DNA from: Alphaproteobacteria bacterium
Lineage (GTDB): Bacteria; Pseudomonadota; Alphaproteobacteria; JABAAW01
NCBI GenBank assembly: GCA_965216625.1
Contig: OZ244186.1
Coordinates: 1,347,594-1,411,593, forward strand
Direction: 5' to 3'
Length of the DNA: 64,000 nt
Shown: positions 20,238 to 46,559 of the stretch, one piece after another
Position numbering within the stretch: position 1 is the first letter of the stretch
Layout of the letters: the number at the start of each line of letters is the position of its first letter
Made by a program: the position numbers and the translations under genes
Notes under the pieces: generated by a model
Databases searched by the model: none
What the model saw: only the letters and a program-made list of their open reading frames with translations
What the model was told of the DNA's origin: nothing

Positions 20238-21476
20238 TTAATTTTCGACCACCTCGATGGCGAGCGCGAGGGCTTCTCCGCCGCCGATACAAATCGCTGC
20301 CATGCCGCGCTTCAGGTTTCTTGCGCGCAGGGCGGAGAGGAGGGTGATGAGAATGCGTGCGCCCGATGCGCCGATGGGGTGTCCGAGCGCGCACGCGCCG
20401 CCATTCACATTGACGCGCTCGGCTGGCAGGCGCAGGGTTTGCATCGTTGCCAGGGTGACGATGGCGAAGGCTTCGTTGATTTCAAACAGATCGACATCCT
20501 CAAAGTTCCAACCGCAGGCTTGTTCGAGTTTTTGCAACGCTTGGATAGGGGCGAGCGTGAATCGTTGGGGTTCGCGCGCGTGCGAGGCGGAGGCTTTGAT
20601 TTCGGCGAGGATGCGCCAGCTTTGTTTTTCGGCAAACGATCTTCGAGCGAGGACGAGCATCGCAGCCCCGTCGGAGATCGAGGAAGAGTTGGCGGCGGTG
20701 ACGCTGCCGTCTTTTACAAATGCGCCTTTCAGAAGTGGAATCTTGGCGATATCCGACTTGAAGGGTTGTTCGTCTTGCTGCACGAGCGTCTCTTTTTTGC
20801 GCGAGGAGATTGTTACGGGAACGATTTCTTCCTTGAAACTGCCGTCTTCATTAGCACGCCGCGCTTCGGTGAGCGAGCGGATGGCGAAGTCGTCCATCTG
20901 CTTACGCGAGATCTGCAACTCTTGCGCGGTCTCTTCGGCGAAGACTCCCATACTTTTATTTTGCCCACCTGCTTGCGAATAGGCGTCTTCCAAGCCGTCG
21001 CACAGCATGTGGTCGATGAGGTGCGCGTGTCCCATACGCAAGCCGCCGCGCGCGTTGGGGAGGATGTAGGGAGCGTTGCTCATGCTTTCCATGCCGCCTG
21101 CGAGAATGGCGGTGTTGGCGGTGTTGGCGTTGTGCTGTAGCGCATCGCCCGCCATCATCACTGTCTTCAGCCCTGAGCCGCACATTTTGTTGATTGTCGT
21201 TGCGCCCACGCTATCTGGGAGTTTTGCGGCTCGTGTAGCTTGACGCGCGGGGGCTTGTCCGATGCCTGCGGATAGCACGCAGCCGATGAGGCTTTCGGAG
21301 AAAATGTTGTTGATGGGGTCGTTATTGTAGTTGATGTCTTGCAGGCAGGCTTGGATGCAGCGGGAGGCGAGGTAGGGGGCGGAGGCGGGTGCGAGGCAGC
21401 CTTGGAAGCTACCGATGGGGGTACGACGGGCGGCGACGATGACGACGGGGTCTTTTGGATCGAGGGCTTGCGACAT
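20238..21476 (-). CDS. Acetyl-CoA C-acetyltransferase (thiolase II)
   Basis: Active-site motifs NKMCGSGLK, the NGGACALGHPIGASGAR region and CIGGGEALALAIEV. The track start at 21587 overlaps tRNA-Val. The biological start is MSQALDPKDPVVIVAARRTPIG at 21476. Confidence 0.85.
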   Translation of the reverse strand: MSQALDPKDPVVIVAARRTPIGSFQGCLAPASAPYLASRCIQACLQDINYNNDPINNIFSESLIGCVLSAGIGQAPARQATRAAKLPDSVGATTINKMCGSGLKTVMMAGDALQHNANTANTAILAGGMESMSNAPYILPNARGGLRMGHAHLIDHMLCDGLEDAYSQAGGQNKSMGVFAEETAQELQISRKQMDDFAIRSLTEARRANEDGSFKEEIVPVTISSRKKETLVQQDEQPFKSDIAKIPLLKGAFVKDGSVTAANSSSISDGAAMLVLARRSFAEKQSWRILAEIKASASHAREPQRFTLAPIQALQKLEQACGWNFEDVDLFEINEAFAIVTLATMQTLRLPAERVNVNGGACALGHPIGASGARILITLLSALRARNLKRGMAAICIGGGEALALAIEVVEN

Positions 21477-21517
21477 GGGAATTGGTGAGGAGGCAAAGGG
21501 GGCAAAGAGGGGAGGCG

Positions 21518-21589
21518 TGGGTACGGTTGGGATTGAACCAACGACTTCTGCCGTGTGAAGGCAACGCTCTACCGCTGAGCTACGCACCC
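21518..21589 (-). tRNA. tRNA-Val (anticodon CAC)
   Basis: Reverse complement GGGTGCGTAGCTCAGCGGTAGAGCGTTGCCTTCACACGGCAGAAGTCGTTGGTTCAATCCCAACCGTACCC. It folds as a cloverleaf with anticodon loop TTCACAC. Confidence 0.8.
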
Positions 21590-21617
21590 TTATCAGAATT
21601 TTTTCGGGGGAGGGGAG

Positions 21618-21775
21618 GTCGCTACAGGTAGCCTAGCCGATGGCGGGCGAAAGGTCAATTTACGAAACGCGCGTAGAAGGCGCTATCGCGCCCCGCTGAC
21701 GCGGGGTCTTCGTGGGGGGAATTTATCCCCCCACACCCCCCCGCGTGCTACGCACGCGATGTTTTGCGCCCGTAA
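21618..21775. repeat. Mosaic palindromic intergenic repeat, copy 2
   Basis: It shares gcgcgtagaaggcgctatcgcgccccgctgacgcggggtctt...ggggggaatttatcccccc with the other copies. Confidence 0.8.
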
Positions 21776-21795
21776 AGACTACCCACTCCCATCAT

Positions 21796-22302
21796 TTACT
21801 CCCAAGCCCCCACCCTCTCAATCTTCCCCCCATCCCCCCCCAGTCGCACCACCAACTCCCCAATCGAACACCCCAACGCCGGATCACAAAAATTCGACGC
21901 AATCTCCTCAAGCGGCAACAAAACAAAAGCTCGCTCCCCACGACAAGGATGAGGAACAACTAACCCATCCCCAACAATAATCCGCTGCTCGTAATACAAT
22001 AAATCTAAGTCAATCACACGCGAAGCATAACGACGACTCGATACAACCCTCCCTAACCCCCGCTCCAAATCCTTCAGCCGAACAAGCAACGCCTCAGGCG
22101 ACAAACGCGTCCGACAACAACAAACCGCGTTGAGAAAATCAGGCTGGGCAGAGTCATACATCGCACAACTCCGATACAACGACGAAAAACGCTCGACAAC
22201 AATATCCCCCCCCGAACCCAAAGCCTCGCGCGCCGCCAACAAGTGAAACCTCTTGTCACCAAGGTTACTGCCCAAAGCAACAAAAATAGGAGAATGCCAC
22301 AT
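21796..22302 (-). CDS. folK: 2-amino-4-hydroxy-6-hydroxymethyldihydropteridine pyrophosphokinase (HPPK)
   Basis: IFVALGSNLGD, the NAVCCC..RLSPEALL region and ERFSSLYRS..., then DLDLL. Confidence 0.85.
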   Translation of the reverse strand: MWHSPIFVALGSNLGDKRFHLLAAREALGSGGDIVVERFSSLYRSCAMYDSAQPDFLNAVCCCRTRLSPEALLVRLKDLERGLGRVVSSRRYASRVIDLDLLYYEQRIIVGDGLVVPHPCRGERAFVLLPLEEIASNFCDPALGCSIGELVVRLGGDGGKIERVGAWE

Positions 22303-22345
22303 CCTTCCCTCGAAAATATGCCGCAGAAATATGCCGCCAGAAGTA

Positions 22346-22417
22346 TGCCGAAGGGGAGATTCGAACTCCCGGCCTACTGATTACGAATCAGTTGCTCTAC
22401 CCCTGAGCTACTTCGGC
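22346..22417 (-). tRNA. tRNA-Thr (anticodon CGT)
   Basis: Reverse complement GCCGAAGTAGCTCAGGGGTAGAGCAACTGATTCGTAATCAGTAGGCCGGGAGTTCGAATCTCCCCTTCGGCA, with a perfect 7-bp acceptor stem. Confidence 0.85.
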
Positions 22418-22561
22418 TCTATCGAACACGCTCCGATAACATGCTAGCAAACTTTTCCCCCCTCTCTCGCACAATATATTGCACACGACAACTCTGATGC
22501 TTTATACGCGAGCCGTTTTGCACTATCATGCATCGCGTCTCCCTTTGTTTTCACAGGATGC

Positions 22562-23695
22562 ATGCGCGTTCTCGATCGCCATATTTTTTCTTCCCTGACG
22601 GCTGTCTTTTTGCTCGCCTTAGCGAGCCTCTTGTTGCTGTTCTTCTCGGTGCTGATTCTGCGCTACAGCAGCCTGATTTCGGAACACCACCAAGTTCTCT
22701 CTGCGGTTGTCATCACTTGCATTGTAGGCATCCCGATGCATGTGAGCTTTTTTATTCCCCCCGCCTCAGGGATTGCAACCTTCTTATGCATGCGCAACTG
22801 GCAACGCGAGGGCGCATGGTTGGGTAGCGTTGCCTCCGGCTACGACATTCGCCGATGGCGCTTTCCCTTCCTGCTATTCGCGCTTTTTTGCTCGGTGATG
22901 GGTTGGGTGTTCACGCTTTGGATCGGTCCCTACGGAGCAAGGGATTATTTTGCTCGGGTCGGCAATCTCTACGCGGATCGCTTCTTCCTCTCGACAGAGC
23001 CGAAACGCTTTGTCGAGCTGACCGACGGGGTGAGGCTGTGGGTCGAATCGAAACCCTCACAAGACGATCTGCGCAACCTAGTGCTGACGATCAAAAAGGA
23101 CGATCGCCACACCCTCTTGGCAGCGCAATCAGGACGGCTGTTGCGAAGCGAGGGCGGAATGATGCTGGAAGCGCGCAACGGCACTGTATCGATTTTCGAG
23201 AAAAAAGTTTCTCAAACGATCCGCTTTGAGAAGTTTTACTACGGCTTGGAAAGCCTTCTCAACCCACAGCGAAACTGGCAAACGCGCTGGAAGAATTGGA
23301 CACGCCTGGAAATACCGACCGCATTGCTCTTAGAACGAATAGCGCTCGCACGACAGACGAATGCCGACAACCTTGAGGCGCAGAAACGCGAGACGCTGCT
23401 GCAAGGAGAACGAGCAAGGCGCGAGTTTGTGTTGCGCCTCGCCTATCCGTTACTCTCTCCTGTGTATGTTTTGGCGATCTTTGCCCTCGCTGCCCCGAGG
23501 AGGGCGCGCGGAGAAAATCGCTGGAACGGACTTGCCGCCTTCTCGTTTGTGATCGTCTACAGTACGGCTCATATCTACGCGGTCACACTCTCGGAACGAG
23601 GAGGATGGGCGACGGGTGCCGTGTTCGCTCTGAGCGCTGCGGTTTGTGCGGGTGCCTACGCGCTGACAGAGCGCAAAGTCGAAGCGCAAGCATGA
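22562..23695 (+). CDS. lptF: LPS export ABC permease LptF (YjgP/YjgQ family)
   Basis: Six-TM permease with the pattern MRVLDRHIFSSL. lptG and lptD follow it. Confidence 0.7.
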   Translation: MRVLDRHIFSSLTAVFLLALASLLLLFFSVLILRYSSLISEHHQVLSAVVITCIVGIPMHVSFFIPPASGIATFLCMRNWQREGAWLGSVASGYDIRRWRFPFLLFALFCSVMGWVFTLWIGPYGARDYFARVGNLYADRFFLSTEPKRFVELTDGVRLWVESKPSQDDLRNLVLTIKKDDRHTLLAAQSGRLLRSEGGMMLEARNGTVSIFEKKVSQTIRFEKFYYGLESLLNPQRNWQTRWKNWTRLEIPTALLLERIALARQTNADNLEAQKRETLLQGERARREFVLRLAYPLLSPVYVLAIFALAAPRRARGENRWNGLAAFSFVIVYSTAHIYAVTLSERGGWATGAVFALSAAVCAGAYALTERKVEAQA

Positions 23696-28486: not shown

Positions 28487-29542
28487 ATGCCTCAACCTCC
28501 GTTGGTCGTCACCGCGGGCAGCCGAGAGAGCATCGGTGCAGAGATTCTTGCTACGGCGTGGAAGATTTGGGCGCAGCGGCATCAAGACAAGCATCCAAAT
28601 AAACTTGGAGAAGAATCGCCGTGCTTTCTTTCGCTCGGCGGTAGCAAGAAAGACTTCGAGGCTTTCGCTGTACCTTGTCGCCGCATCTCGACGATCGAGG
28701 AGACGAGTGCCATCTTTCCGCTCGCCTTACCCTTGTTGGACGAGGGGTTGGAGGCACGCGATTCGATCGACGCAGCCTTAAAGTTATGCACTGAGGGCAA
28801 GGCTTGTGGAATCGTCACGCTTCCTGTCGAAAAGAAAGTGTTTTCCGATAACCCTCTCCTGCAAAACTCGACGACAGCCTCTAAAAACGAGTCTGTCCTT
28901 TGGGGACATACGGAATATATCGCAGCCTCGTTGGGGATTGAGGAATACGGCATGCTGCTCGCTTGGCGCGGGCTGCGCACGTTGCCGATCTCACGCCATG
29001 TCGCGCTACGCCACGCGGTGGAGATACTGGACGAGGAAGGCATCGTAGCGGCGGCGCGGCTTGCTCACAAAGCATTGAGGCAGGATTTCGCCATAAGAAA
29101 GCCTCGGTTGGCGGTCGCGGGGTTGAACCCTCACGCGGGAGAGGGAGGATTGTGCGGGCATGAGGAAAAAACAATTCTACAGCCCGCCATCGATCGTTTG
29201 TGCGAGGAGGGAATCGCAGCGACAGGACCGCATCCGTCGGACAGTCTTTTTCTCCCCCAGATGCGCAAAACTTTCGACTGCGCCTTGACGCTCTACCACG
29301 ACCAGGGATTGATTCCCTTGAAGCTTTTGTCCAACCAGCGAGCGGTCAACATCACGCTGGGCTTACCTGTCGTGCGCTGCTCGCCCGACCATGGCACGGC
29401 GCGCGACCTTGTCGGACGAGGGATCGCCGATGCGGGCAGCCTTATCTCCGCCTTGGAGACGGCGTGGCAGATGGCGAAACAGAGGCAGAAGCATGGAGAA
29501 GATAGAAAGGAGAAAGCTGTCCGTTGCGAGCATGCAGCGTGA
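28487..29542 (+). CDS. pdxA: 4-hydroxythreonine-4-phosphate dehydrogenase
   Basis: PLVVTAGSRESIGAEI, GPHPSDSLF and YHDQGLIPLK are PdxA motifs. Confidence 0.85.
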   Translation: MPQPPLVVTAGSRESIGAEILATAWKIWAQRHQDKHPNKLGEESPCFLSLGGSKKDFEAFAVPCRRISTIEETSAIFPLALPLLDEGLEARDSIDAALKLCTEGKACGIVTLPVEKKVFSDNPLLQNSTTASKNESVLWGHTEYIAASLGIEEYGMLLAWRGLRTLPISRHVALRHAVEILDEEGIVAAARLAHKALRQDFAIRKPRLAVAGLNPHAGEGGLCGHEEKTILQPAIDRLCEEGIAATGPHPSDSLFLPQMRKTFDCALTLYHDQGLIPLKLLSNQRAVNITLGLPVVRCSPDHGTARDLVGRGIADAGSLISALETAWQMAKQRQKHGEDRKEKAVRCEHAA

Positions 29543-30476
29543 GCCACAAAACTTGGCAAAGATAGACTTAAGACTAGACGGGGGATTAAACGCGGACGAG
29601 GACATTGTTGCTCGGTTGCGCGAGGCGGGCTTGTTGCGCACGAGCGCTTTGCAAAAAAGTCGCGGACAGAACTTTCTGAGGGATACGAATTGCGCGAGAC
29701 GTATTGCAAGGTGTTGTGATGTTGGGGGGGGGCTGTCCGCCTCGATGATTGTGGAGATTGGCGCGGGTGCGGGGGCTTTGACGCGCGCGTTGTTTCACGA
29801 GGGAGCGCGGCGTGTTGTTGCCATCGAGTCGGATGTGCGACTAGCAGACTTCTTAAGACGGGCGAGCGATAGATGGGGGGAGGAAAAAACCTTGCAGGTA
29901 ATCGAGGCGGATGCGAGGACTTTGGATTACGTTGATCTTATCGAGAGGGGGCTTACTGAAGAAGATACGATCATTGTTGGCAATTTACCTTATAGCGTTG
30001 GGACGGTGATTTTGCGAAAGATTTTGGAGGATGGGGTGAGGTATAGGACGATGGTATTGATGTTTCAGCGAGAGGTTGCGGAGCGTATTGTGGCGAATGT
30101 TGGTTCTTCTGCGTATGGTAGATTATCGGTTATGGTTGGGTTGCGATGTTGTGTTGAGCGATGTTTTGATGTTGAGCCGAGTGTTTTTGTTCCTGTTCCT
30201 AATGTTGTTTCTTGTGTGTTGCGTTTTTCAGCAAGGGGGGTTGATGAGGAGTTAGGCGATATTGTTACGGATGCGGAGTATGGGGTTGTTGGGGAGATGA
30301 CGGGGTTATTATTTTCGTATCGAAGGAAGCGGATGTCGACGATTTTGCGGATGGCGGGGCGGGGGGATTGGGGGAGGATTGGGGAGGGGATTGGCATTGA
30401 TTGTTCTAGACGTGCGGGGGAGGTGGGGATTGGGGAGTGGCTACGCTGGGCGAGGGCTGTGATGACTTCGCGGTGA
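29530..30476 (+). CDS. rsmA: 16S rRNA (adenine1518/1519-N6)-dimethyltransferase RsmA/KsgA
   Basis: GQNFLRD, IVEIGAGAGALT and NLPYSVGT. The 3' third of the gene is strongly G+T-rich. Confidence 0.8.
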
Positions 30477-30509
30477 TGGCGACGCGCTATGGCGAGGCAG
30501 ACACGGGCT

Positions 30510-31000
30510 TTGTTGATTAGGTAACATACGCAAGACGAGCGAGCCTTAAGATTAGTTTTGGGCGAAGCGAGTTTTGCGCATGGGGGGGGGGGCGACGGGC
30601 TTTTTGTATTGACGGGCGGAAAACATCGCGTGCGTAGCACGCGGGGGGGTGTGGGGGGATAAATTCCCCCCACGAAGACCCCGCGTCAGCGGGGCGCGAT
30701 AGCGCCTTCTACGCACTCGCGCGAAGCGCGAGATGCGTAGCCTCTTATTCAAAAGCACGTTGCTTGCCTCGCGCAAGGGGAATTTATCCCCAAGCTGACT
30801 CGCAATGCGGTAGAGCGTTTTTAATTTTGCCTAGAATCTAGAGATAAAAAGAATCGCGCGGAGCGCGCCTCTTATTCAAAAGCGCGTTGCTTGCAACGCG
30901 CAAGGGGAATTTATCCCCAAGCTGACTCGTAACACGGTAGAGCGTCTTTAATTTTGCCTAGAATCTAGAGATAAAAAGAATCGCGCGGAGCGCGAAAAAA
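30510..31000. repeat. Array of mosaic palindromic repeats, including two tandem ~125-bp units (30733..30857 and 30858..30982)
   Basis: Directly visible. The units are cctcttattcaaaagcgcg...gcgcaaggggaatttatccccaagctgactcg(t/c)aa(c/t)(a/g)cggtagagcgt...ttgcctagaatctagagataaaaagaatcgcgcggagcgcg. Confidence 0.85.
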
Positions 31001-31082
31001 ATTGCTAGGCTACGCAACAAGTGCTAAAAATAGTATAGATGATTCGCACAAATACACAGATAGCCCAAGAAGGGCGGTAACG

Positions 31083-31655
31083 ATGACCGACTTCAATCAA
31101 TTGCCAAGCAACCTGCCTAAGCCAATAAATGACGGTGCCGCAGATCATCTGCTTGGGCTAAAACTGCCAGAAATTACTCTAACCTCGACTGATGACGAAA
31201 AAATCAATCTCGCAGAACTCAAGGGAAAGGTCGTGATATTTTGTTACCCGAAAACCGGCAGGGATGGTGTCACAATGCCAGAAGGATGGGATCAAATACC
31301 AGGCGCAAGAGGTTGCACGCCGCAAACTTGCTCCTACAGAGATAATTACCAAGAGATAAAACAGCTTGGCGCGAAAATCTTCGGGCTGAGCACACAGAAA
31401 ACCGATTACCAAAAAGAATTGGCAGATAGGCTAAATCTACCTTTTTCCATACTCAGCGACGAAAAAATGCAGCTGACTAAAGCTCTCTCTTTGCCAACGT
31501 TCGCCATAGACGATATGTTGTTACTCAAGCGTTGCGCAATGATTACAGAAAACGCCAAGATAATAGCTCTGAAGTATCCTGTCTTTCCTAGCAATAGCGA
31601 TGCTAGTTGGGTCATCGATTATCTAGCGCAAATACAATCTAGACTCGCGTCATAG
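31083..31655 (+). CDS. Peroxiredoxin-like (AhpC/TSA-Redoxin family) protein encoded in an A+T-rich segment
   Basis: VVIFCYPKTGRDGVTMPEGW...GCTPQTCSYRD is a thioredoxin-fold peroxiredoxin pattern. GC content is far below the neighbouring genes. Confidence 0.6.
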   Translation: MTDFNQLPSNLPKPINDGAADHLLGLKLPEITLTSTDDEKINLAELKGKVVIFCYPKTGRDGVTMPEGWDQIPGARGCTPQTCSYRDNYQEIKQLGAKIFGLSTQKTDYQKELADRLNLPFSILSDEKMQLTKALSLPTFAIDDMLLLKRCAMITENAKIIALKYPVFPSNSDASWVIDYLAQIQSRLAS

Positions 31656-31939
31656 CGCGAGACAAAGCCTTTCTGTCGCGCTCGCGCTTGTGCTTTTTAA
31701 AAGCACGCACTCGCGCGTCAGATTAAAAAAAACTGCACGAAGATGCTAGTAGCGGCGGCAGCAGCGATGGCAAGATTTCTGATGATCTCAGAGGCTTGGA
31801 CTAGACATTTCATACCTATATTATGAGACACACCTCCTGACAAATCATGCCGAAGTTTTTCCCCCTGTAAGGAGGCTGACTCTGTCGCTGTCTTCTGTGA
31901 GAGAGCGGGCAGAGTCTCGCGCCAACAACCTTGCGTCAC

Positions 31940-32500
31940 AAAAGCAGCTTGCCGTGTTACGAGTCAGCTTGGGGATAAATTCCCCTTGCGCGTTTCTGCG
32001 AAACGCGCTTTTGAATAAGAGGCGCACTTCGTGCGTTCTTTTTTCCTCTATCTTCTAGGCAAAATTAAAAACTCTCTACCGTGTTACGAGTCAGCTTGCG
32101 CACGCCTTCGGCGTGCGCTTTTGAATACGAGGCGCGCTACGCGCGATTCTTTTTATCTCTAGGACGAGGAAAACAATCTCGCCGTACCATGTTACGAGTC
32201 AGCTCGGGGATAAATTCCCCTTGCGCACGGCAAGCCGTGCGCTTTTGAATAAGAGGCTACGCATCTCGCGCTTCGCGCGAAATGCGTAGAAAAGCGCACT
32301 GCGTGCGCGAGGGGATAAATTCCCCCCGCTGACGCGGGGTCTTTTGCGAGGGATTACTCCCTCGCGCTCCCCGCGTGCTACGCACGCGATGTTTTGCATC
32401 CGTCAATATAAAAAGCGCGTCAAGACAAAAAGCCCGTCAAGACAAAAAGCCCGTCAAGACAAAAAGTCCGTTACGCATCCGTAGTTCTGCTACAATCCCC
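31940..32500. repeat. Array of the same mosaic repeats in the inverted orientation relative to 30510..31000, followed by three tandem 17-nt units gtcaagacaaaaagccc (32417..32467)
   Basis: The units cgctctaccgtgttacgagtcagcttggggataaattcccc..., gcttttgaataagagg and ccccgctgacgcgggg are reverse complements of those in the left array. Confidence 0.85.
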
Positions 32501-32507
32501 CCACCCC

Positions 32508-33962
32508 ATGACCATCCGCGTACGATTTCCCCCCAGCCCCACAGGAAGCCTGCACCTCGGCGGCGCACGCACCGCCCTCTACAACTTCCTCTACGCTAAA
32601 AAACACAACGGAAACTTCCTCGTCCGTATCGAAGATACCGACAAAAATAACCCCAACGCCACCGCCAACACAAAAAACATCCTCAACGACCTGCAATGGC
32701 TCGGTATCAACCCCGATGGCAAATATACCCTCCAATCACAAAATATCGTCCGCCACAAAGAAGTAGCCGCCCTCCTCCTGAAAGCAGGTAAAGCCTTTCG
32801 CTGCTACGACAGCCTCAAACACGACAACAAAAACGCAGCCCACTCAGAAGCACGCTCCCGTAGCAATGTCTTCAGAAGTCCATGGCGAGATAAATGGAGC
32901 GATAAAACTCCCACAGACGCTCCCAAAGATGCCGACTCCGTCGTTCGCCTCAAAGTGCCGCTCGAAGGAACCCTGACCATCGACGATAAAGTCAAAGGAA
33001 AAGTCACCTCCCCAAACACGCAAATCGACGACTTCGTCCTGCTCCGCTCCGACGACTCCCCCACCTACATGCTATCAGTCGTCGTAGACGACTACGATTC
33101 CCAAATCACCCACATCATCCGCGGCGACGACCACCTCACCAATACCTTCCGCCAACAAACCCTCTACAACGCTTGCGTCAGCGCAGGAATTTTCTCCAAC
33201 CAACAACCAAAGCCCCTCTACGCGCACATTCCCATGGTGCTGGACGAAGAAGGAAACCGCCTCTCGAAACGCAAAGGCTCGCGCAGTATCAACGACTTTC
33301 AAACCGACGGCATCCTACCCGAAGCATTGCTGAACTTCTTACTCCGCCTCGGTTGGGGACACAAAGACATGGAGATTTTCTCGCTACAACAAGCCATCGA
33401 CCTGTTCGACCTCGAAGGCTTGAACTCCGCACCCGCACGCATCTCCTACGCACGCCTCGAAAACCTGAACGCGCACTATCTGCGCACGCTGCCGCTCAGC
33501 GAGCTGCAATCTCGTCTACAACCCTTCCTGCCCGACTCCGCAGACGCACAAGCTCGCAAGCGATTCTTCCAAGGACTCGAAGGCTTGCGACAACGCGCGA
33601 CAACCCTACGCAACCTTGTCGCACGCGGCGAGTTTTACTTCCAACCCCCTCGCCTCCCGTTGCCCGATGCCAAGGCGCAAAAAATTTGGGACGAAGCACG
33701 CCTCAACCTTCCTCCTCAAGCCCTGCCACAACTCAGCGAAAGGTTGGCAGGAACCCGCGACGCAGATTGGAAAGCCGACACCCTCGCCCAAACGATGCGC
33801 GAGGCAGCACAAAGCTTAAAGCTCGGCTTCGGCGACCTCGCCAAACCCCTGCGCGCCGTCTGCACAGGACGCATGGATTCGCCCGACCTCAGCGAAGTGC
33901 TTGCCGTGCTAGGAAAACAACAAACCCTAGAGCGACTGCAACAAGCCCTCGCGCAACGCTAG
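32508..33962 (+). CDS. gltX: Glutamate--tRNA ligase
   Basis: The HIGH-region motif here is PSPTGSLHLGGARTA, followed by KMSKS-like LSKRKGS. Confidence 0.9.
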   Translation: MTIRVRFPPSPTGSLHLGGARTALYNFLYAKKHNGNFLVRIEDTDKNNPNATANTKNILNDLQWLGINPDGKYTLQSQNIVRHKEVAALLLKAGKAFRCYDSLKHDNKNAAHSEARSRSNVFRSPWRDKWSDKTPTDAPKDADSVVRLKVPLEGTLTIDDKVKGKVTSPNTQIDDFVLLRSDDSPTYMLSVVVDDYDSQITHIIRGDDHLTNTFRQQTLYNACVSAGIFSNQQPKPLYAHIPMVLDEEGNRLSKRKGSRSINDFQTDGILPEALLNFLLRLGWGHKDMEIFSLQQAIDLFDLEGLNSAPARISYARLENLNAHYLRTLPLSELQSRLQPFLPDSADAQARKRFFQGLEGLRQRATTLRNLVARGEFYFQPPRLPLPDAKAQKIWDEARLNLPPQALPQLSERLAGTRDADWKADTLAQTMREAAQSLKLGFGDLAKPLRAVCTGRMDSPDLSEVLAVLGKQQTLERLQQALAQR

Positions 33963-33971
33963 CTCGAAGTA

Positions 33972-34865
33972 CTACGAGCGCGCAGCCGTCCATCCGTGCA
34001 ACACAAGCGCGTGGAACTCTGCGAAAAGACGCCCATCTTTGCGAGGATACAAGCTGTCCGCAAGCTCGATCACCTCTCTCGACAAAGGCGTCGTCTCGGC
34101 GACCACCCCCGATTCGCCCATCGTCTGCACATCGCGTAGCAAATCCCACAGGTTCTCGTAGTCCGCCTCGACATAAAAACTCTCGGCAAAGGGCTGGCGC
34201 AAAAAAGGCAGATCGCGCATGGCGTTGCCGACACGCTCCAAAGAAGGGAAAGGAGGAACGCGCAAACAAACACGACTTCGCAACCGCGATTCGGCTTGCA
34301 ACAAGGTTTGCGCCAAAACACTCAGCGTCCCATCGCCAAAAATGACGGCGTAAAAAGGCGCGTCCGCCCTCAACAAAGCCGCCAGTCCCGTCAAGGCACG
34401 CGACAAATCCTGCTCCCAATGCAACGAAAAAAAAGACAGAGCCGCGTCAAACGACTCCGTCTCATCCGCAAGCGAAGCCTTGATGCATACCTTCGCGCGC
34501 AACTCCGCGTGCAACTTTTGCGATTCAAGCCTCGCCGCGTTTTGCTCCAGCAACATCGTCAAACGCCGAGAAGGCTCGCACAGCGTAAGCTCCCCCATGC
34601 GCTGCAAAGCTCCTCCGTCCGCCAAAGCCTGCAACAAAGCCCCGTCGCGCGGCGTGAGCGCAACAACACGCCGAAAAGGCTTTTTCAAATCAAGCCACTT
34701 GTCCGCCAACACATCCCCCGCATGGCGAAAAAGAAACTCGGCATCCCTACCCCATAACATTCGCCGAGAAACAATGCGCTCGCGCAACGCCAAACGTCTG
34801 CGCAACGAAACTCCAAACCCTGCTTCCACACCTCTCCCCCCATCGCAACCAGCCCCATCGCTCAC
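33972..34865 (-). CDS. Putative SAM-dependent methyltransferase (NDUFAF5/COG0500-like, degenerate motifs)
   Basis: Its length and the pattern LFRHAGDVLADKWLDLKKPFRRVVALTPRDGALLQAL resemble alphaproteobacterial NDUFAF5-like methyltransferases. The motif I glycines are not conserved. Confidence 0.4.
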   Translation of the reverse strand: MSDGAGCDGGRGVEAGFGVSLRRRLALRERIVSRRMLWGRDAEFLFRHAGDVLADKWLDLKKPFRRVVALTPRDGALLQALADGGALQRMGELTLCEPSRRLTMLLEQNAARLESQKLHAELRAKVCIKASLADETESFDAALSFFSLHWEQDLSRALTGLAALLRADAPFYAVIFGDGTLSVLAQTLLQAESRLRSRVCLRVPPFPSLERVGNAMRDLPFLRQPFAESFYVEADYENLWDLLRDVQTMGESGVVAETTPLSREVIELADSLYPRKDGRLFAEFHALVLHGWTAARS

Positions 34866-34871
34866 CTGACG

Positions 34872-36575
34872 CTACTCTTTCAAAGGCAGCACAACAGCCC
34901 ACCCCACCAACGGCGCAGGAATGCCGCGCACTCGGCTCACCTCCACCCCGAAAATCCTACGCCACGGCACAGCGAAGGGCGGTGGCAACGCATAAGACCT
35001 GTCACGCAAAACTTGACGATAACGAAACGGCAAGCCCTCGTCCGCGTTGCGCGCAAACCACAACAGAACGCCTCCCTTCTCGCGCCACTCCTCACGGCGA
35101 TCAGCAACCCACGCCCTCCTCTCGTCGTCGAGCAGCGTGACAACATTAGGGCGCGAAGGCGCAAAAAACGCAACGTTGTCAGCAAGCCATCCGCCGCCAA
35201 CGATCGACAAGGGCCGATAACCCTCTTGCCTCCAGCCGTCTGCAACCTTCCTCGCCAAAAGCTTGCCGTCGAAAAAAGGACGCAAACTGGGAGGCAGACC
35301 AACCCGCAACGGCGTGCGCGACGACTCCTCTCCCGCCTCCTCAGCACGATTTTGCGCATCGACATCCGAACGCATCGAAGCAACAGGCTTAGTCGTCACC
35401 TGATAGGGACCGTCGAACAACCACGCCTGTCGTGGCGAGGCGACAAAAGGCAAGGCTAACACCCCCGCCGTCGTCAACAAAACAAGACCACTCCACACAG
35501 CAAAGAAAATCGGCACCCTTCTGCGGATCGTGTTCTGATCGATCGCGTTCCTGCAAAAATAGAAGAGCGCAATCCCCGTTAAATTCCAATAGAACAAACC
35601 CCACAAGCTGTGAATGTAGCGCTGCCCGAACATCGACAAGGCAATCGAGACAGCAAATGGCAACAATCCGATCGTCAGCAAAAAGACTTTCTTGTCGTGC
35701 GCGAAACAAACCCGCTCGGAGGAGGGTTGCGGCTTGTCGCGCCGCGGCAGAAAGACAGCGAAACACAAGAACACAGGGAGCATATTGACGATCTGCCCGT
35801 AGGTGAAGCGCAAGGGAAAGTAGAGCGCGGGCAAGAACGGCGCAGTGAGTTTTTGCGATATCTGCGTCGTTGCGTAAGCGAAGGTTGCATAGTCGTTGTG
35901 TATGACCCACCACCCGTGCGGCAGGATGAGAATTCCGAAGAGCGTCATTGCCGCGTACGGCTTGTAGGTCTTGAGATATGCTCTCCAATGTGGACGCATC
36001 AGGATCGTCGCTAGGCTTGCCAGCAACAACAACACGGCGGCGTATTTCGTCAGGATAGCTACCGCCGCCGCCGCCGCGAGTGCCATCCACCATCGAGCGC
36101 GCCCGTCGTTGAGAGCTTTCCACAAAAAGAAGTTAAAGGCAGCCCACGAAAGCAACGACACGGTGTTGGCGTTGTAGGTGAGGCTGTAAAAGCTGTAGAA
36201 GAGGCCGCAGGCAAGAATCAGCGTCGCAAGCAGAGCAGACAGGGGCGCGAGAAATTCTTGAGCCAAGCGCCAAACAAAAAAGTAGGTTGCAAGCAGCGTT
36301 ATTTGTCCGACAAGATAATACGAAGCGATGGTGTCGGGAAGAAAGAACAAAAAAGCCTTGAGTATCCACGACGGCATGGCGGGATGCTTTTGCCCGCTCC
36401 ATTGCAACTCGCGCGACCATTGGAGAATCTCCGCTGCATCCGCTTGCAAGCCCGGATGCAGCCAGGTAAAAACACCGACAAGAACAACAGCTTTGAGCGT
36501 TAGGAGAATTAAAAGAAGAGCCCCAAGGTTTTCCTGCTTAAGAAAACTTTGAGAACTTTTTTGTTTTGAGTTCAC
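34872..36575 (-). CDS. Glycosyltransferase family 39 / ArnT-like dolichyl-phosphate-mannose-type membrane glycosyltransferase
   Basis: About 12 TM helices with an N-terminal GT-C fold signature (DTIASYYLVGQ). 567 aa. Confidence 0.65.
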   Translation of the reverse strand: MNSKQKSSQSFLKQENLGALLLILLTLKAVVLVGVFTWLHPGLQADAAEILQWSRELQWSGQKHPAMPSWILKAFLFFLPDTIASYYLVGQITLLATYFFVWRLAQEFLAPLSALLATLILACGLFYSFYSLTYNANTVSLLSWAAFNFFLWKALNDGRARWWMALAAAAAVAILTKYAAVLLLLASLATILMRPHWRAYLKTYKPYAAMTLFGILILPHGWWVIHNDYATFAYATTQISQKLTAPFLPALYFPLRFTYGQIVNMLPVFLCFAVFLPRRDKPQPSSERVCFAHDKKVFLLTIGLLPFAVSIALSMFGQRYIHSLWGLFYWNLTGIALFYFCRNAIDQNTIRRRVPIFFAVWSGLVLLTTAGVLALPFVASPRQAWLFDGPYQVTTKPVASMRSDVDAQNRAEEAGEESSRTPLRVGLPPSLRPFFDGKLLARKVADGWRQEGYRPLSIVGGGWLADNVAFFAPSRPNVVTLLDDERRAWVADRREEWREKGGVLLWFARNADEGLPFRYRQVLRDRSYALPPPFAVPWRRIFGVEVSRVRGIPAPLVGWAVVLPLKE

Positions 36576-36633: not shown

Positions 36634-36755
36634 GGGACGGCAACGCCCTACTCTTCCACGCCACGAGGACGCAGTACCATCGGCGCAGGAGGCTTTCACG
36701 TTCGAGTTCGGAAAGGGATCGGGTGTTGAGCCCTCCGCTATGATCGCCGCCCCGT
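36634..36755 (-). rRNA. rrf: 5S rRNA
   Basis: Reverse complement ...GGCGGCGATCATAGCGGAGGGCTCAACACCCGATCCCTTTCCGAACTCGAACGTGAAAGCCTCCTGCGCCGATGGTACTGCGTCCTCGTGGCGTGGAAGAGTAGGGCGTTGCCGTCCC. Confidence 0.85.
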
Positions 36756-37018
36756 CACTGCACGGAAACAAATCATGGATTTTTTTCGACAAGTTTGTTT
36801 GTCGTTTTTGTTTTGAGAACGCTTTTCAATTTTTAGTAATTTCTGTCACAGCATTATCTATGCGCTGAGGCGCTGCTTGCGTTTTGTCGAAGCAAAGAGC
36901 GTTAAGGTCAATCGAGAGATTAGTACCGGTCGGCTCCACATGTTACCATGCTTCCACCTCCGGCCTATCGACGTGGTGTTCTTCCACGGCTCTGATAGCG
37001 ATATCTATTTTCGAGGTT

Positions 37019-37051
<33 letters not shown>

Positions 37052-37219
37052 AGACCGTACTTGGCTACCCGGCACTGCCACTGGCGTGACAACCGGTACA
37101 CTATAGGTACGTCCACTCCGGTCCTCTCGTACTAGGAGCAGCTACTCTCAGATATCGAACACCCACGGCAGATAGGGACCGAACTGTCTCACGACGTTCT
37201 AAACCCAACTCACGTACCA

Positions 37220-37270
<51 letters not shown>

Positions 37271-37326
37271 TGATGAGTCGACATCGAGGTGCCAAACACC
37301 CCCGTCGATGTGAACTCTTGGGGGGT

Positions 37327-37380
<54 letters not shown>

Positions 37381-37808
37381 TCGGGACCACCGGATCACTA
37401 TGACCGACTTTCGTCTCTGTTCGGCCCGTCGGCCTTACAGTCAGGCAGGCTTGTGCCATTGCGCTCATCGGCTGATTTCCGACCAGCCTGAGCCTACCAT
37501 TGCGCGCCTCCGTTACTCTTTGGGAGGCGACCGCCCCAGTCAAACTACCCACCACGCAGGGTTCCGGCTCCTCCACGGAGTCGGTTAGATGACAAATACA
37601 GCAAGGGTGGTATCTCAAGGTTGCCTCCACCTCGACTAGCGTCGAGGTTTCTCAGGCTCCCACCTATCCTGCACGTGATGCATCTGGCATCACTGCGAAG
37701 TTGTAGTAAAGGTGCACGGGGTCTTTCCGTCTAACCGTGGGAACTCCGCATTTTCACGGAGAGTTCAATTTCGCTGAGTCTGTGTTGGAGACAGTGGGGA
37801 GATCGTTG

Positions 37809-37897
<89 letters not shown>

Positions 37898-37974
37898 TTC
37901 AGGAGCTTTCACCCCATCCCTTAACCTTCCGGCACCGGGCAGGCGTCAGACCCTATACTTCGTCTTACGACTTT

Positions 37975-38007
<33 letters not shown>

Positions 38008-38493
38008 CCCCTGATTTCGTGCCCCCCGCGACGGCTTGCGCCGCTGCGGGGCCTCCTTTTCCCGAAGTTACGGAGGTAATTTGCCGAGTTCCTTCAACAC
38101 AGTTTTCTCACGCGCCTTGGTATGCTCAACCGATCCACCAGTGTCGGTTTAGGGTACGGTCTAAAGCTGGGGTTCTTTCCAGGAACGACTTCCCCTGCCT
38201 TCGCAATCCGATCAGCGAAGACAAGAAAGGTCATCCGTCACCTCCAGCAGGCTCAGGAATATTAACCTGATTCCCATCGTCTACGGCTTTCGCCCTCGAC
38301 TTAGGGGCCGGCTCACCCTACGCGGACGAGCCTTGCGTAGGAAACCTTGGATTCTCGGCGGGGGTGATTCTCACACCCCTTGACGCTACTCATGTCAGCA
38401 TTCTCACTTCCGATACCTCCACGACACCTTACGACGCCGCTTCACAGGCTTACGGAACGCTCCGCTACCGATGCAACAGAATCTGTCCGTCGT

Positions 38494-38998
38494 CAATTAA
38501 TCATCATTTAAATTGCGCTCCTATCCCTTCTATAAGCCAACTAGGGATGGAGTCAGAATCTCCATCCCCGTTAGCAATGTCAAATCGTTTTGACTAGTTC
38601 GCTCTTTTGCAAGCCCCATCCTCACAAGAATAAATTTGGGGAGACAAAGGGATGCCGAAAACATGACGAGGAATCGCCAGATAACCTGCTGGCGCATCAA
38701 TTGTGTCGGTACTGCCTCCAAAATAGATCCCGCCAGTGGTACATCCACCCAAGGCAAATATTCCCACAAGAGCCACAGCTACGATAAGAGATTTTTTCAT
38801 GTCATCCTCCTACAAGGATTGTTGAGAAACTGCCTCTCGCGCTCGTGCGCGGAGGCACTGCCTTATCGGCAGGTGGAGCGATGATAGTATGAAAAAAGGC
38901 TTTGACAACCTTTTTTGCTTTTCACCATCTCCTCCTCGTGTTTCTTTTTTCCCTTGAAGGAGGGACATGAAATTGACGACGCACAGATTCTGTTACAT
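38494..38998 (-). other. ~505-nt intervening sequence replacing 23S helix 45; long (~28 bp) closing inverted repeat
   Basis: The rRNA sense reads GAAGCTGCGGG|ATGTAACAGAATCTGTGCGTCGTCAATT...AATTGACGACGGACAGATTCTGTTGCAT|CGGTAGCGGAGCGTTCC. The flanks match E. coli positions about 1160-1190, where helix 45 IVSs are known. Confidence 0.75.
38594..38800 (-). CDS. Small lipoprotein (68 aa; ~48-aa mature peptide with a C-terminal Cys pair) encoded inside the 23S IVS, in the rRNA sense
   Basis: MKKSLIVAVALVGIFALGGC is a lipobox, followed by ...YSCEDGACKRAN. The RBS is aggagga. A conserved hairpin ccgcgcacgagcgcg lies upstream. It is A+T-richer than the flanking rRNA. Confidence 0.5.
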   Translation of the reverse strand: MKKSLIVAVALVGIFALGGCTTGGIYFGGSTDTIDAPAGYLAIPRHVFGIPLSPQIYSCEDGACKRAN

Positions 38999-39059
38999 CC
39001 CGCAGCTTCGGTATACGGCTTGAGCCCCGTTACATCTTCGACGCAGGAAGGCTTGATTA

Positions 39060-39123
<64 letters not shown>

Positions 39124-39680
39124 TGGCTTTCCCACATTCTTTCCCACTTAGCCGTAATTTAGGGACCTTAGCTGGCGGTCAGGGCTGTTTCCCTTTTGAC
39201 GACGGACCTTAGCACCCGCCGTCTGTCTGCCGTGCTGAATCCTACAGTATTCGGAGTTTGGTTAGGTTTGGTAAGGCTCGCGCCCCCCTAGCCCATCCAG
39301 TGCTCTACCCCTGCAGGAGATCACACGACGCACTACCTAAATAGTTTTCGCGGAGAACCAGCTATTTCCGAGTTTGATTGGCCTTTCACCCCTAGCCACA
39401 GATCATCCGAAGATTTTGCAACATCTAACGGTTCGGCCCTCCAATGCGTGTTACCGCATCTTCAGCCTGTCCATGGCTAGCTCACTCGGTTTCGGGTCTT
39501 ATACTACGAACTAACGCGCCCTTTTAAGACTCGCTTTCGCTACGCCTACGCCTCACGGCTTAAGCTTGCTCGTAACACAAAGTCGCTGACCCATTATGCA
39601 AAAGGTACGCGATCACCGCACGAAGCGGCTCTCGCAGGTTGTAGGCACTCGGTTTCAGGGACTCTTTCACTCCCCGCATT

Positions 39681-39726
<46 letters not shown>

Positions 39727-40613
39727 GTCGAGGAGTATTTAGGCTTGGAGGGTGGTCCCCCCACATTCAGGCAAGATGTCACGTGTCCCGCCCTACTCTA
39801 GAACAAATCATGCAGATTCGTGTACGGGGCTATCACCCTCTATGGCGCGTCGTTCCAGACGTCTTCCTCTTCAAGCATAATCAGCTACTGGCCTCTTCCG
39901 CGTTCGCTCGCCGCTACTAACGGAATCTCGGTTGATGTCTCTTCCTCCGGCTAATGAGATGTTTCAGTTCGCCGGGTTCGCTTCGCTGTACTTGCGTACA
40001 ACGATTCCCCACTAAGGGGAGGGTTTTCCCATTCGGATATTTTCGGATCACAGTGTGCTGGCAACTCCCCGAAACTTTTCGCAGCCTGCCACGTCCTTCA
40101 TCGCCTCTCGACGCCAAGGCATTCGCCAAGCGCCCTTTGCTACCTTTCGCTCTTTGCTGACAATTCGCAAGCAGCGCCTCAACTCATAGAGGGCTGCTGT
40201 TGACAGAAATTGTGCGTTCTTTCCGATTTCACAAAACTCCGTGCGCAACGCGCCGACAGAGCCAGAAAATCGAATTCTTACAAACGATGGACTTGTTCAA
40301 TAGTTCCCCCCGAAACGCCTCTCGTATTGCAAATACAAGCAGCGCGAAGCCCATAATAGCCGAGCCAGTACTAGAGCGCAAGAAAAAAAACACAAAAAAC
40401 GCATCAGAGATAAAAAAACACGCAAGCGAAAATTTTCCCATCCTCCCCTCTTTTGCTCCCTCTTTTTCTCTTTGTGCGCCTTGCCTCAAAGCACGCCTTG
40501 CGTAGAAAACGACGCTCTCATGTCAGCATTCTCACTTCCGATAACGCTTCTCATTCTTGCGGAACGCTCCGCTAGCGATGCAACAGAATCTGTCCGTCGT
40601 CAATTTTTTTCTT

Positions 40614-45446: not shown

Positions 45447-45506
45447 CATTCTCTGAAAATTAGAATCTACTTTTTCCATTTTTTCTCTTCCACGGAGGCA
45501 TTTTCC

Positions 45507-46559
45507 ATGAATCGCTGTTTGACTTGTTGTTTGGCTCGCGCGGGGTTTATCGTGCTTGCGCTCGTTTTTTGTTTCGAGCCGTTTGTGCTGATAGCGACGG
45601 CTCAGCAGGAGAATTTTGTTAATGTTTATAGTTATCGTTCTCGTTTTCTGACGAAGCCTGTCTTCGATTTGTTTACGGCAGAGACGGGCATTGCTGTGCG
45701 CGTCGTGTCTGCTAAGGAGGGATTGATCGAGCGCATCGCGCAGGAGGGAGAAAACTCTCCTGCCGATCTGTTGATTTCGAACGATGCGACGCGCTTGATA
45801 CAGGCAAAAAAACGAAACATTACTGTTGCCGTGAGGGATAGGAACTTTGTTGGCAGCAGCTTGCCGCGCCATTTGCGTGACAAGGAGCGGCATTGGTTTG
45901 CTCTGACGCGACGCGCGCGAATCCTTTATGTCGCGCAGGAGCGGTTGGGCGAAGAGAAGATCCGACGTTATGAGGACTTGAGCTTACCGCAATGGAAGGG
46001 ACGCATCTGCACGCGCTCGGCTGTGCATGATTACAACTTGGATCTTGTTGCTGCTGTCATGGTGCATAATGGTCGCAAGAAGACGCATGCGTGGCTTTCG
46101 GGGTTGCGAGACAATTTGGCACGCAAGCCGCAGGGCAACGATCGTGCGCAGATACGCGCTGTTGCGGAGGGCATCTGTGATGTTGCCATTGGCAATAGTT
46201 ACTACTTCGGCATTATGCAGGCGGATCCTGCTCAGCGGATTTGGACTAAGGGGGTGACTCCTGTTTTTCCCAATCAGAATGATTATGGGACGCATATGAA
46301 TCTGACGGGCATGGCGTTGATTAGGACGGCTCCGAATCGCACTGAGGCGTTGCAATTAATGTATTTCCTTCTTTCTTTCGAGGCGCAGAGTTTGTTTGCG
46401 CAAAAAAACTATGAGTATCCGGCTTTAGATGGGGTACCGCCGACGGAGTTATTGCAGCTATGGGGTGTTTTCAAGCAGGATGTTGTTGATCCTGCGCGAA
46501 TTGCGGAAAGGAGACGTGAGGCGATTGAGATGGTGCATGCTATCGACTTCGATCGATGA
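45507..46559 (+). CDS. Fe(3+) ABC transporter periplasmic substrate-binding protein (FbpA/AfuA family)
   Basis: Signal peptide present. Size and patterns (NVYSYRS...LISNDATRL...GNSYYFG) fit iron(III)-binding SBPs. Confidence 0.6.
   Translation: MNRCLTCCLARAGFIVLALVFCFEPFVLIATAQQENFVNVYSYRSRFLTKPVFDLFTAETGIAVRVVSAKEGLIERIAQEGENSPADLLISNDATRLIQAKKRNITVAVRDRNFVGSSLPRHLRDKERHWFALTRRARILYVAQERLGEEKIRRYEDLSLPQWKGRICTRSAVHDYNLDLVAAVMVHNGRKKTHAWLSGLRDNLARKPQGNDRAQIRAVAEGICDVAIGNSYYFGIMQADPAQRIWTKGVTPVFPNQNDYGTHMNLTGMALIRTAPNRTEALQLMYFLLSFEAQSLFAQKNYEYPALDGVPPTELLQLWGVFKQDVVDPARIAERRREAIEMVHAIDFDR

Follow-up and report, generated by a model that had tools for sequence, protein, structure and literature searches.

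How a single gene of low GC content came to lie between two oppositely oriented repeat arrays, in the spacer that separates two core genes, is the question raised by the rsmA–gltX locus of an uncultured alphaproteobacterium (GTDB lineage JABAAW01). The stretch of DNA analysed, hereafter the window, comprises 64,000 nucleotides of contig OZ244186.1, and coordinates refer to it unless another contig is named. The gene, here called prx (31083-31655, + strand, 190 amino acids), encodes a predicted peroxiredoxin. An earlier note on this DNA had described two oppositely oriented arrays around a peroxiredoxin-like Redoxin gene with a GC content far below that of the core genes, and had likened the whole to a composite-transposon-like or recombination-captured cassette. 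The arrangement is found close to where the note had placed it, with the repeat-covered intervals (30503-30994 and 31930-32421) now measured at 492 bp each. The family assignment stands, both Pfam Redoxin and AhpC-TSA being above gathering, and so does the composition, with 44.7% GC in prx against about 56% in the neighbouring genes. "Recombination-captured cassette" is a fair description, as prx is missing in three relatives and belongs to a block free of substitutions among strains. We consider it probable that a prx islet was captured recently at the centre of a resident, recombinogenic palindromic element that resembles repetitive extragenic palindromic (REP) sequences and bacterial interspersed mosaic elements (BIMEs).

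Recent gain of prx between rsmA and gltX

The island is preceded by pdxA (28487-29542) and rsmA (ending at 30476; Pfam RrnaAD, 7e-40) and followed by gltX (32508-33962, with its ATG at 32508; Pfam tRNA-synt_1c, 8e-75). About 600 bp of non-coding DNA separate rsmA from prx and about 850 bp separate prx from gltX, and prx is the sole convincing gene between the arrays. The cargo enclosed by the arrays (30995-31929) consists of the prx open reading frame (ORF) with its 88-bp leader (30995-31082, + strand), which is without homologue elsewhere and 100% identical in three strains, a long imperfect hairpin, H (31667-31722), directly after the prx stop with an A8 run behind it, and unique sequence of about 210 bp (31723-31929). 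The three conspecific strains compared, namely the window, L001 (536-kb contig), and L002 (78-kb contig), share this arrangement. It may be asked whether the island is a chimeric join produced at the repeats by assembly or binning, the source being a metagenome-assembled genome and repeats being classic sites of misassembly. However, the order rsmA-array-prx-array-gltX is found in three independent assemblies, on contigs of 1.9 Mb, 536 kb, and 78 kb, with strain-specific differences in the arrays, and the probability of an artefact is negligible.

Relatives were recovered by GltX searches, and comparison of their rsmA–gltX intervals, a check proposed in the earlier note, reveals three genomes that keep pdxA-rsmA-gltX and have no prx there: L003 (GltX 89% identical, spacer of 352 bp), L013 (77%, 364 bp), and L011 (74%, 498 bp). 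No prx orthologue from any of them is among the best 120 hits, and the exact Prx cluster consists of one sequence on three contigs, all from this species and all at rsmA–gltX. In L003, the spacer is a module termed X joined to a single right-orientation half-element, which is collinear with the last unit of the window's right array. Homologues of H are present in the prx-free spacers of L013 (84% identity over 57 nucleotides) and L011 (81% over 52). Right-arm modules also occur in L013, in which H directly abuts the motif CGCGTCACAAAAGCAGCTTGC; in the window, 210 bp lie between H and CGCGTCACAAAAGCAGCTTGC. As these parts are present in prx-free L003, L013, or L011, both H and the right arm belong natively to the spacer. 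Four parts are additional in the window species: the left arm, further inner units, the prx fragment (about 30995-31660), and the unique segment 31723-31929. Parsimony, with one gain against several losses, favours an insertion, and prx is a derived, recent gain at rsmA–gltX in one species.

Resident mosaic palindromes on both sides of the gene

Aligned in inverted orientation, 30594-30994 and 32421-32023 are 76% identical over 422 columns (self-BLAST, E = 5e-82), and the best sub-blocks reach 100% over 43 nucleotides and 88.5% over 148. The left side opens with the outer module X and a G-run (TTGATTAGGTAACATACGCAAGACGAGCGAGCC...GAGTTTTGCGCATGGGGGG; 30513-30593, + strand), a module that is present in L003 and absent in strains L001 and L002. 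It is followed by the inverted left half-element (30594-30994, − strand), comprising an outer part (30594-30739) and, at its inner end, two tandem units of 127 nucleotides (30740-30866 and 30867-30993) that are 94% identical to each other. The right half-element (31930-32421, + strand) begins at its inner side with three units of 105-127 nucleotides (31952-32078, 32079-32186, and 32187-32291), after which comes the outer part. At its outer end lie 3-4 copies of a 17-nucleotide tandem motif (GTCAAGACAAAAAGCCC; 32400-32471, + strand), the inverted counterpart of which forms the outer tip of the left arm (30594-30617). This tandem is situated directly upstream of a putative gltX promoter, and its copy number differs between strains (L001/L002) and between species.

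The repeat family is not private to rsmA–gltX and recurs in the window at sites A (3604-3787), B (21667-21779), C (46591-47040), and D (49719-50215), with module X also bordering A, C, and D. Sites C and D are complete imperfect palindromes composed of two abutting inverted halves of about 250 bp, whose inner ends are just 14 or 38 nucleotides apart. The search for repeat-cargo-repeat units elsewhere that the earlier note suggested is therefore answered in part: within the window, the same two-arm architecture exists at C and D, but without cargo. The inverted two-arm, dispersed multi-copy design by which miniature inverted-repeat transposable elements (MITEs) and foldback elements are recognised is likewise seen at C and D, with partial copies at A and B.

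Alignment of 11 half-elements (both arms of the island, C, and D; A; B; the L003 spacer; and the L001 arms) gives a single conserved module order with alternative outer ends, the modules being short GC-rich hairpins followed by T-runs. Terminator-like hairpins number 22 in the region against 3.7 ± 1.9 expected from shuffles, those of the left arm being on the − strand and those of the right arm on the + strand. Between copies, 8 of 30 predicted stem pairs are altered on both sides in a compensatory manner; at one position, for example, the stem is built from GCGCGAGGC/GCCTCGCGC, GCGCGTTTC/GAAACGCGC, or GCGCACGGC/GCCGTGCGC. No Rfam family is found in the island, whether the whole window is scanned at the gathering threshold or 30400-32600 at E up to 1, the island matches being chance-level miRNA and BLV only. 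The ORFs of the arrays do not exceed 74 amino acids and none of them matches any family. In a metagenome scan, the repeat core GCGCTTTTGAATAAGAGGC returned four isolated single matches, which are uninformative. The family is confined to the genus of the window organism; the lineage that holds the relatives of prx is without it. Thus, the arrays are resident REP/BIME-like mosaic palindromic elements of this genome and not copies of an insertion sequence (IS).

A 15-nucleotide mini-palindrome, GGGGATAAATTCCCC, has nine exact copies in the window (at 12452, 21716, 30655, 30777, 30904, 31971, 32206, 32311, and 47041) against none expected, six of them in the prx island, and a copy with one mismatch is at 48450. 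Its presence or absence differs between homologous repeat copies and between strains (six in the island of the window, two in L001, three in L002), and it sometimes resembles a 17-nucleotide insertion with a duplicated TTG.

The island could itself be the mobile unit, that is, a composite or foldback-type element with the arrays as its termini, of which the cargo-free palindromes would be non-autonomous, MITE-like copies. This would agree with the long inverted arms of tandem subrepeats, the cargo-free two-arm architecture at 46.6-47.0 and 49.7-50.2 kb, the position of the cargo exactly between the inner ends of the arms, the shifting of arm modules between loci, and the recent, horizontal acquisition of prx. 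The hallmarks of transposition are nevertheless lacking. Searches with Pfam transposase, integrase, and recombinase families give no match in the arrays or among the roughly 50 ORFs of the window, and no REP-associated tyrosine transposase (RAYT) is encoded within its 64 kb. By direct reading, no target-site duplication is present at the island junctions (30580-30600 and 32465-32485) or at the cargo junctions (30994/30995 and 31929/31930), and none is seen at sites C and D. Moreover, the right arm is already at the site in the prx-free sister species and its modules are in L013, the unit occupies one locus only in all three strains, the arms are 76% identical to each other and nearer to copies at other loci, and the repeats are confined to the genus whereas the relatives of prx come from a lineage without them. 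A mobile unit is accordingly an unlikely explanation, and the composite-transposon-like part of the earlier description fails: the arms are resident stacks of hairpins at a single cargo-bearing locus.

Recent spread among strains and recombination between arms

Nucleotide divergence of the window from L001 or L002 amounts to 2-6% in pdxA and rsmA, 1-3.5% in gltX, and 10-16% in the arrays, which in addition differ by indels and in the number of units. Between them, the interval 30861-31804, composed of the last left unit, the leader, prx, H, and 80 bp beyond, has no substitution in 944 bp, the sole difference being a 1-nucleotide poly-A indel in L002. The Poisson probability of such an interval ranges from 2e-4 to 3e-21 across the divergences observed in the flanks. 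Between L001 and L002 there is no difference at all over 30861-32507, despite 3-5.5% divergence in rsmA. Given the lack of substitutions and this identity despite diverged flanks, the 944-bp block has been moved between strains recently by recombination, and 30861-31804 is a recent recombination or sweep tract.

The tract ends within the unique segment, of which 31723-31804 is identical among strains and 31805-31929 exists as two alleles of equal length, one in the window and one in L001 and L002, that are about 60% identical (divergence about 40%). The latter part overlaps the start and upstream region of a minus-strand ORF encoding a hydrophobic peptide of 31 amino acids (MKCLVQASEIIRNLAIAAAAATSIFVQFFLI; 31718-31813 including the stop), which is kept in both alleles. 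It has no homologue apart from a single spurious low-complexity match among 1.84 billion proteins. A longer minus-strand ORF of 73 amino acids (31718-31939) is rejected as a gene, as it is not kept in the other allele, where 31 amino acids alone survive.

The arms themselves are exchanged. The left arm of L002 has three inner units; the left arm of the window is closest to the right arm of L001 and L002, and its right arm to their left arm. Outer modules are swapped between left and right when the window (30594-30740 and 32257-32421) is set against L001 (positions 2540-2674 and 4030-4175 of that locus). Exchange extends beyond the locus, in that the left outer module of L001 is 98.4% identical to part of site D (50072-50215), 18 kb away in the window, and the left outer part of the window is 97% identical to site B. 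Judging from these identities, the swaps may have arisen through two nested inversions or through ectopic conversion among repeat copies.

Foreign composition and strand-asymmetric gradients

The GC content of prx is 0.447 and that of its third codon positions (GC3) is 0.461, compared with averages of 0.552 (standard deviation 0.050) and 0.604 for the 46 long ORFs of the window. It has the fourth-lowest GC content of the 46, the lower ones being a restriction-modification pair (0.40) and hisS (0.42). That the composition of prx is foreign, with a GC3 not yet ameliorated, is well supported.

The earlier note had itself allowed that the low GC might be just another strand-biased deamination block, and prx does have the region's two strongest skew blocks on either side of it. 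On the left, the 3′ half of rsmA (29600-30502) has a G+T-rich + strand with a GC skew up to +0.59 and GC of about 0.53; on the right, gltX and the next gene (32422-35400) have a C+A-rich + strand with a GC skew down to −0.40. Real skew blocks, however, combine a GC skew of 0.4-0.6 in magnitude with a TA skew of the same sign and leave GC unchanged at about 0.53, whereas prx, with 121 G and 135 C, has a GC skew of about −0.05 and a mild excess of A. In addition, the blocks exist in prx-free relatives, and Prx keeps all residues invariant in its family, unlike the proteins encoded in the blocks, in which the C-terminus of RsmA is distorted toward G, V, W, and R and the N-terminus of GltX toward K, N, T, and P. 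Because its GC skew is near zero, prx is not a skew block, and deamination is rejected as the source of its low GC, being a very improbable explanation.

The skew blocks are informative in their own right. The five repeat sites (A, B, the island, C, and D) have one pattern in common: left of each, G and T are in excess on the + strand, with a keto skew up to +0.46; right of each, C and A are, with a keto skew down to −0.48; and both skews decay over 1-2.5 kb. The orientation of the adjoining genes is irrelevant to the pattern, as the pairs are convergent at A and C, divergent at D, and co-directional at the island and at hisS-prfA. Across the window there are seven sharp flips (2500-6000, 9000-14700, 20900-22600, 29600-35400, 45400-47900, 48500-51000, and 59500-62000), all from + to − with no sharp flip in the other direction, and they correspond to the five repeat sites, the hisS-prfA spacer, and a low-GC restriction-modification islet. 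The gradient at rsmA–gltX is present in prx-free L003, L011, and L013 and absent in L014, in which gltX follows gltA after a 39-bp spacer without repeats. The gradient is thus a property of the repeat site, older than prx.

Polarised substitutions, although few, point in the expected direction: C>T at 12/123 against G>A at 15/342 in the left block, and G>A at 11/154 against C>T at 11/315 in the right block. On either side, the strand with its 3′ end toward the element carries the enrichment of deamination products, which matches exposure by 5′ resection from a break at the element. Two other origins were considered and rejected, namely a transcription-coupled one, as the pattern is the same beside convergent, divergent, and co-directional pairs, and outward strand-displacement replication, which predicts the opposite sign. 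In E. coli, SbcCD is known to cleave long palindromes, and in yeast the single-stranded DNA at resected breaks gives rise to strand-coordinated mutation clusters.

Two of the flips fall at places outside the mosaic family. The hisS gene (10961-12322; TIGR00442, 8e-101) has a GC of 0.42 overall and 0.38-0.40 in its 3′ half, and may be a foreign or mosaic replacement; the hisS-prfA spacer behind it contains an imperfect palindrome of about 200 bp (12327-12532) that belongs to another repeat family and includes GGGGATAAATTCCCC. The restriction-modification islet (60053-61355, − strand, GC 0.40) lies between dapB and a GHMP-kinase gene, beside tRNA-Gln (61420-61491), at a skew flip without the mosaic repeat family. 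It encodes an N6/N4 DNA methyltransferase (PF01555, 1e-33; 60537-61355) and an overlapping ORF of 164 amino acids without family match, presumably the restriction enzyme.

A proposed route of entry through the palindrome centre

As the skew pattern fits a break with resection at the element, repair-associated capture at the centre of the palindrome is the most economical mechanism for the gain of prx. The sequence of events would be as follows. The rsmA–gltX spacer of the genus contains a resident, hairpin-rich mosaic element, which in its full form is a palindrome with inverted halves of about 250-300 bp each. A foreign fragment of about 0.65 kb, made up of the prx ORF and 60-88 bp of leader, would have become fixed at the symmetry centre of this element in one species, and the inner 127-nucleotide units would have been amplified locally. 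The donor would belong to a related lineage that carries prx as a core gene between rpsI and pabB, or would have obtained the gene from such a lineage. The insert then spread among strains by homologous recombination, or is still spreading, and the inverted arms exchange sequence between themselves and with copies elsewhere. A bolder and more tentative proposal, which we hold to be possible and would not call likely, is that these elements are chronic sites of breakage or of single-strand exposure, for instance through hairpin or cruciform cleavage and 5′ resection, which would imprint C>T/A>G gradients of 1-2.5 kb on both flanks and, as foreign DNA is patched in by repair, capture genes without a transposase.

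The Prx protein and its likely expression

The gene is intact, and its product is predicted, from sequence and model alike, to be a thiol peroxidase of the BCP/PrxQ type. Prx matches Pfam Redoxin (1.6e-17, 64.1 bits against a cut-off of 26.6) and AhpC-TSA (3e-17, 63.2 bits against 26) and has the active-site motif PGARGCTPQTC. All 48 residues invariant across 30 homologues are kept, including PGARGCTPQ and R150; C78 and R150 are invariant and C83 nearly so among these homologues, and Prx has all three. In keeping with an intact gene, dN/dS against the homologues of L007 and L008 is 0.13-0.21. The AlphaFold model (pLDDT 84.3, pTM 0.84) best matches BCP/PrxQ proteins, namely E. coli BCP, yeast Dot5, M. 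tuberculosis BcpB, and Xanthomonas PrxQ, with E of about 1e-13 to 1e-11 and target TM-scores of 0.79-0.87, and a sequence search of the PDB agrees with these structural matches.

With E. coli Bcp, Xanthomonas PrxQ, and yeast Dot5, Prx shares the thioredoxin/Prx fold, the conserved Arg, and the GCTxQxC motif, which has two Cys five residues apart and is spanned by the alignment to Dot5. It differs from them in an insertion of about 16 residues (RDGVTMPEGWDQIPGAR) in the active-site loop and in scores that do not reach the NCBIfam equivalog level (58.9 bits against a cut-off of 140 for Bcp and 52.1 against 260 for PrxQ). As these scores are far under the cut-offs, Prx would best be called a BCP-like peroxiredoxin of a distinct, uncharacterised subfamily and not Bcp itself. 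An adaptive acquisition, as the earlier note had supposed for an oxidative-stress gene, is plausible, and a role in peroxide defence would suit the predicted activity.

The layout also suggests how the gene may be expressed. By direct reading, its leader contains an extended −10-like sequence, TGCTAAAAAT (31022-31031), and a Shine-Dalgarno-like GAAGGG 8-13 nucleotides before the ATG. TGCTAAAAAT resembles TGCTACAAT, an extended −10-like sequence of gltX (32488-32496, + strand) that lies 12 nucleotides upstream of the ATG, is kept in L001, L002, and L003, and may be gltX's own promoter, placed downstream of the terminator stack. Transcription of prx would then start from its own extended −10 promoter, supplemented by read-through from pdxA-rsmA, as the hairpins of the left arm would be wrongly oriented to stop rsmA transcripts. 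H and the hairpin/T-run stack of the right arm would be correctly oriented, such that transcripts would end before gltX. With its own promoter or read-through, terminators downstream, and a separate gltX promoter, a central insertion would be expressed, harmless to its neighbours, and hence tolerable.

Source of prx and the case against recent capture

The closest homologues of Prx are P0006 (74% amino acid and 78% nucleotide identity) and P0009 (64%), encoded in genomes of about 50-52% GC within the conserved order Sel1-rplM-rpsI-prx-pabB-ppiD. PpiD shows these genomes, designated Group I, to be relatives of the window organism, which belongs to Group II: the PpiD proteins are 65-93% identical within Group I and 73-96% within Group II, and 43% across the two groups. 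In the Group II genome L010, synteny is the same, but pabB directly adjoins rpsI and prx is missing. The island can be aligned with the donor-like loci L007 and L008 up to the ends of the ORF and no further, so no flanking donor DNA is recognisable. Close copies of prx are not found on plasmids or phages, the plasmid and phage collections offering at most 50% identity. The ratio of between-group to within-group distance is 1.35 for Prx, compared with 2.1-2.9 for PabB, PpiD, and an NAD-binding protein and 1.55 for RplM. This low ratio, together with the unameliorated GC3, favours transfer, probably from an unsampled Group-I-like donor.

A peroxiredoxin phylogeny, another check that the earlier note had called for, bears this out in part: Prx groups with its counterparts from the other lineage, the clade of window Prx, P0006, P0007, and P0009 having 99.5% neighbour-joining bootstrap. 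Its placement inside that clade is the first of several points that weigh against recent capture as set out here. The window Prx is sister to P0006 with 41% bootstrap or basal to the other lineage with 58%, and the tree alone is compatible with vertical descent; a basal position would mirror the organismal tree, and the distance ratio of Prx is close to that of RplM. The nearest known donor candidate has 78% nucleotide identity, with homology confined to the ORF. Recent capture as described does not account for 31723-31929 or for its two alleles. With only a half-element in the sister species, either the ancestor may have had the full palindrome or the left arm may have come, or formed, together with prx. 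That foreign DNA entered during break repair at the palindrome is inferred from context, the promoter, read-through, and termination are read from the sequence, and a generic promoter scan did not flag the prx leader. Finally, all of this concerns the 64-kb window of one genome and a few loci of relatives.

The opposite history would be that prx is ancestral, was relocated to rsmA–gltX, and was later deleted in the relatives, its low GC reflecting local mutational pressure. In its favour, the tree allows a reading that agrees with the organismal split, the spacer is unstable, with indels, unit changes, and module swaps that make deletions plausible, and the genome does have strong local mutational biases. 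This history, however, needs loss from rpsI-pabB (as in L010), relocation, and at least 2-3 independent clean deletions (L003, L013, and L011), with no orthologue elsewhere in those assemblies; recombination between inverted arms inverts and does not delete. Nor does it fit a GC3 of 0.46, unameliorated against a genome GC3 of 0.60-0.65, when the local bias shifts skew and not GC and prx has a GC skew near zero, and the lack of divergence among strains speaks of a recent event. An ancestral prx is thus improbable, even more so than a mobile island, and recent capture is the reading we retain.

Comparison with known systems

The elements of the window are most like the REP/BIME sequences of enterobacteria and, by analogy, the Correia elements of Neisseria and the palindromic elements of Rickettsia, being strictly intergenic, dispersed, GC-rich hairpin mosaics of alternating orientation with compensatory stem changes, terminator-like hairpins, and copy number and composition that vary among strains. 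They differ in being, when complete, palindromes of about 450-500 bp that consist of two long halves, and the likeness rests on anatomy, as sequence similarity to those families was neither looked for nor seen. We know of no described REP/BIME-type element with a protein-coding gene at its centre, and a literature search for an equivalent of prx within its palindrome returned nothing relevant.

Other systems share parts of the picture. Composite transposons such as Tn5 and Tn10 also have inverted repeated segments around a single adaptive cargo gene of foreign composition, but the arms of the island are not IS elements, come with no transposase, target-site duplication, or second copy, and pre-exist without cargo. 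Foldback elements such as the FB elements of Drosophila, and MITEs, resemble the island in their long inverted termini of tandem subrepeats, mostly loop-less with one central insert; in contrast, nothing indicates that the island unit transposes, and target-site duplications are lacking. Foldback elements are a eukaryotic family, and to our knowledge have no bacterial counterpart. Integron cassettes are likewise minimal, single-ORF inserts with an imperfect palindrome directly after the gene, whereas here H is native to prx-free spacers, attC core sites are missing, no integrase is encoded in the window, and prx has its own leader. The islets at hot spots of horizontal gene transfer between core genes are similar in having a strain- or species-specific gene of atypical GC, syntenic flanks, and spread by homologous recombination in the flanks; they differ in that the site of prx coincides with a palindromic repeat and kilobase-scale strand-asymmetric gradients, with no tRNA or integrase.

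Other features of the window

The 23S rRNA match (36635-40211 region) spans 3252 nucleotides for a model of 2925, which suggests insertions, and self-similar segments are found inside it (38382-38498 and 38766-38922) and at its ends (36838-36901 and 40148-40211). A 5S gene follows, and with no 16S adjoining the 23S and 5S genes, the rRNA operon is split.

Hints of lifestyle are found at 47803-48393 and 7434-9011, the window encoding FlaF (flagellar), an MttB-family methyltransferase, and subunits of a tripartite ATP-independent periplasmic (TRAP) transporter, and the related genome L010 (1-1028) encodes a large ankyrin-repeat protein. These genes would fit a bacterium that is probably host-associated but not strongly reduced.

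Implications

Taken alone, the locus documents a small and recent gain of an oxidative-stress gene that has swept through the strains of one species. It goes beyond the routine in the site of insertion, the centre of a resident palindrome with no IS element, integrase, or tRNA site. If the elements are indeed chronic break sites, the prx islet, the restriction-modification islet (60.0-61.4 kb), and the low-GC 3′ part of hisS (11.5-12.3 kb) would be outcomes of one process, and the inverted arms would allow captured genes to flip or to be swapped between strains. The composition of the RsmA C-terminus and the GltX N-terminus would then have been reshaped by the position of the repeats. Such elements would constitute a transposase-independent route of gene acquisition, and their gradients would provide a readable signature of break hot spots in unculturable organisms.

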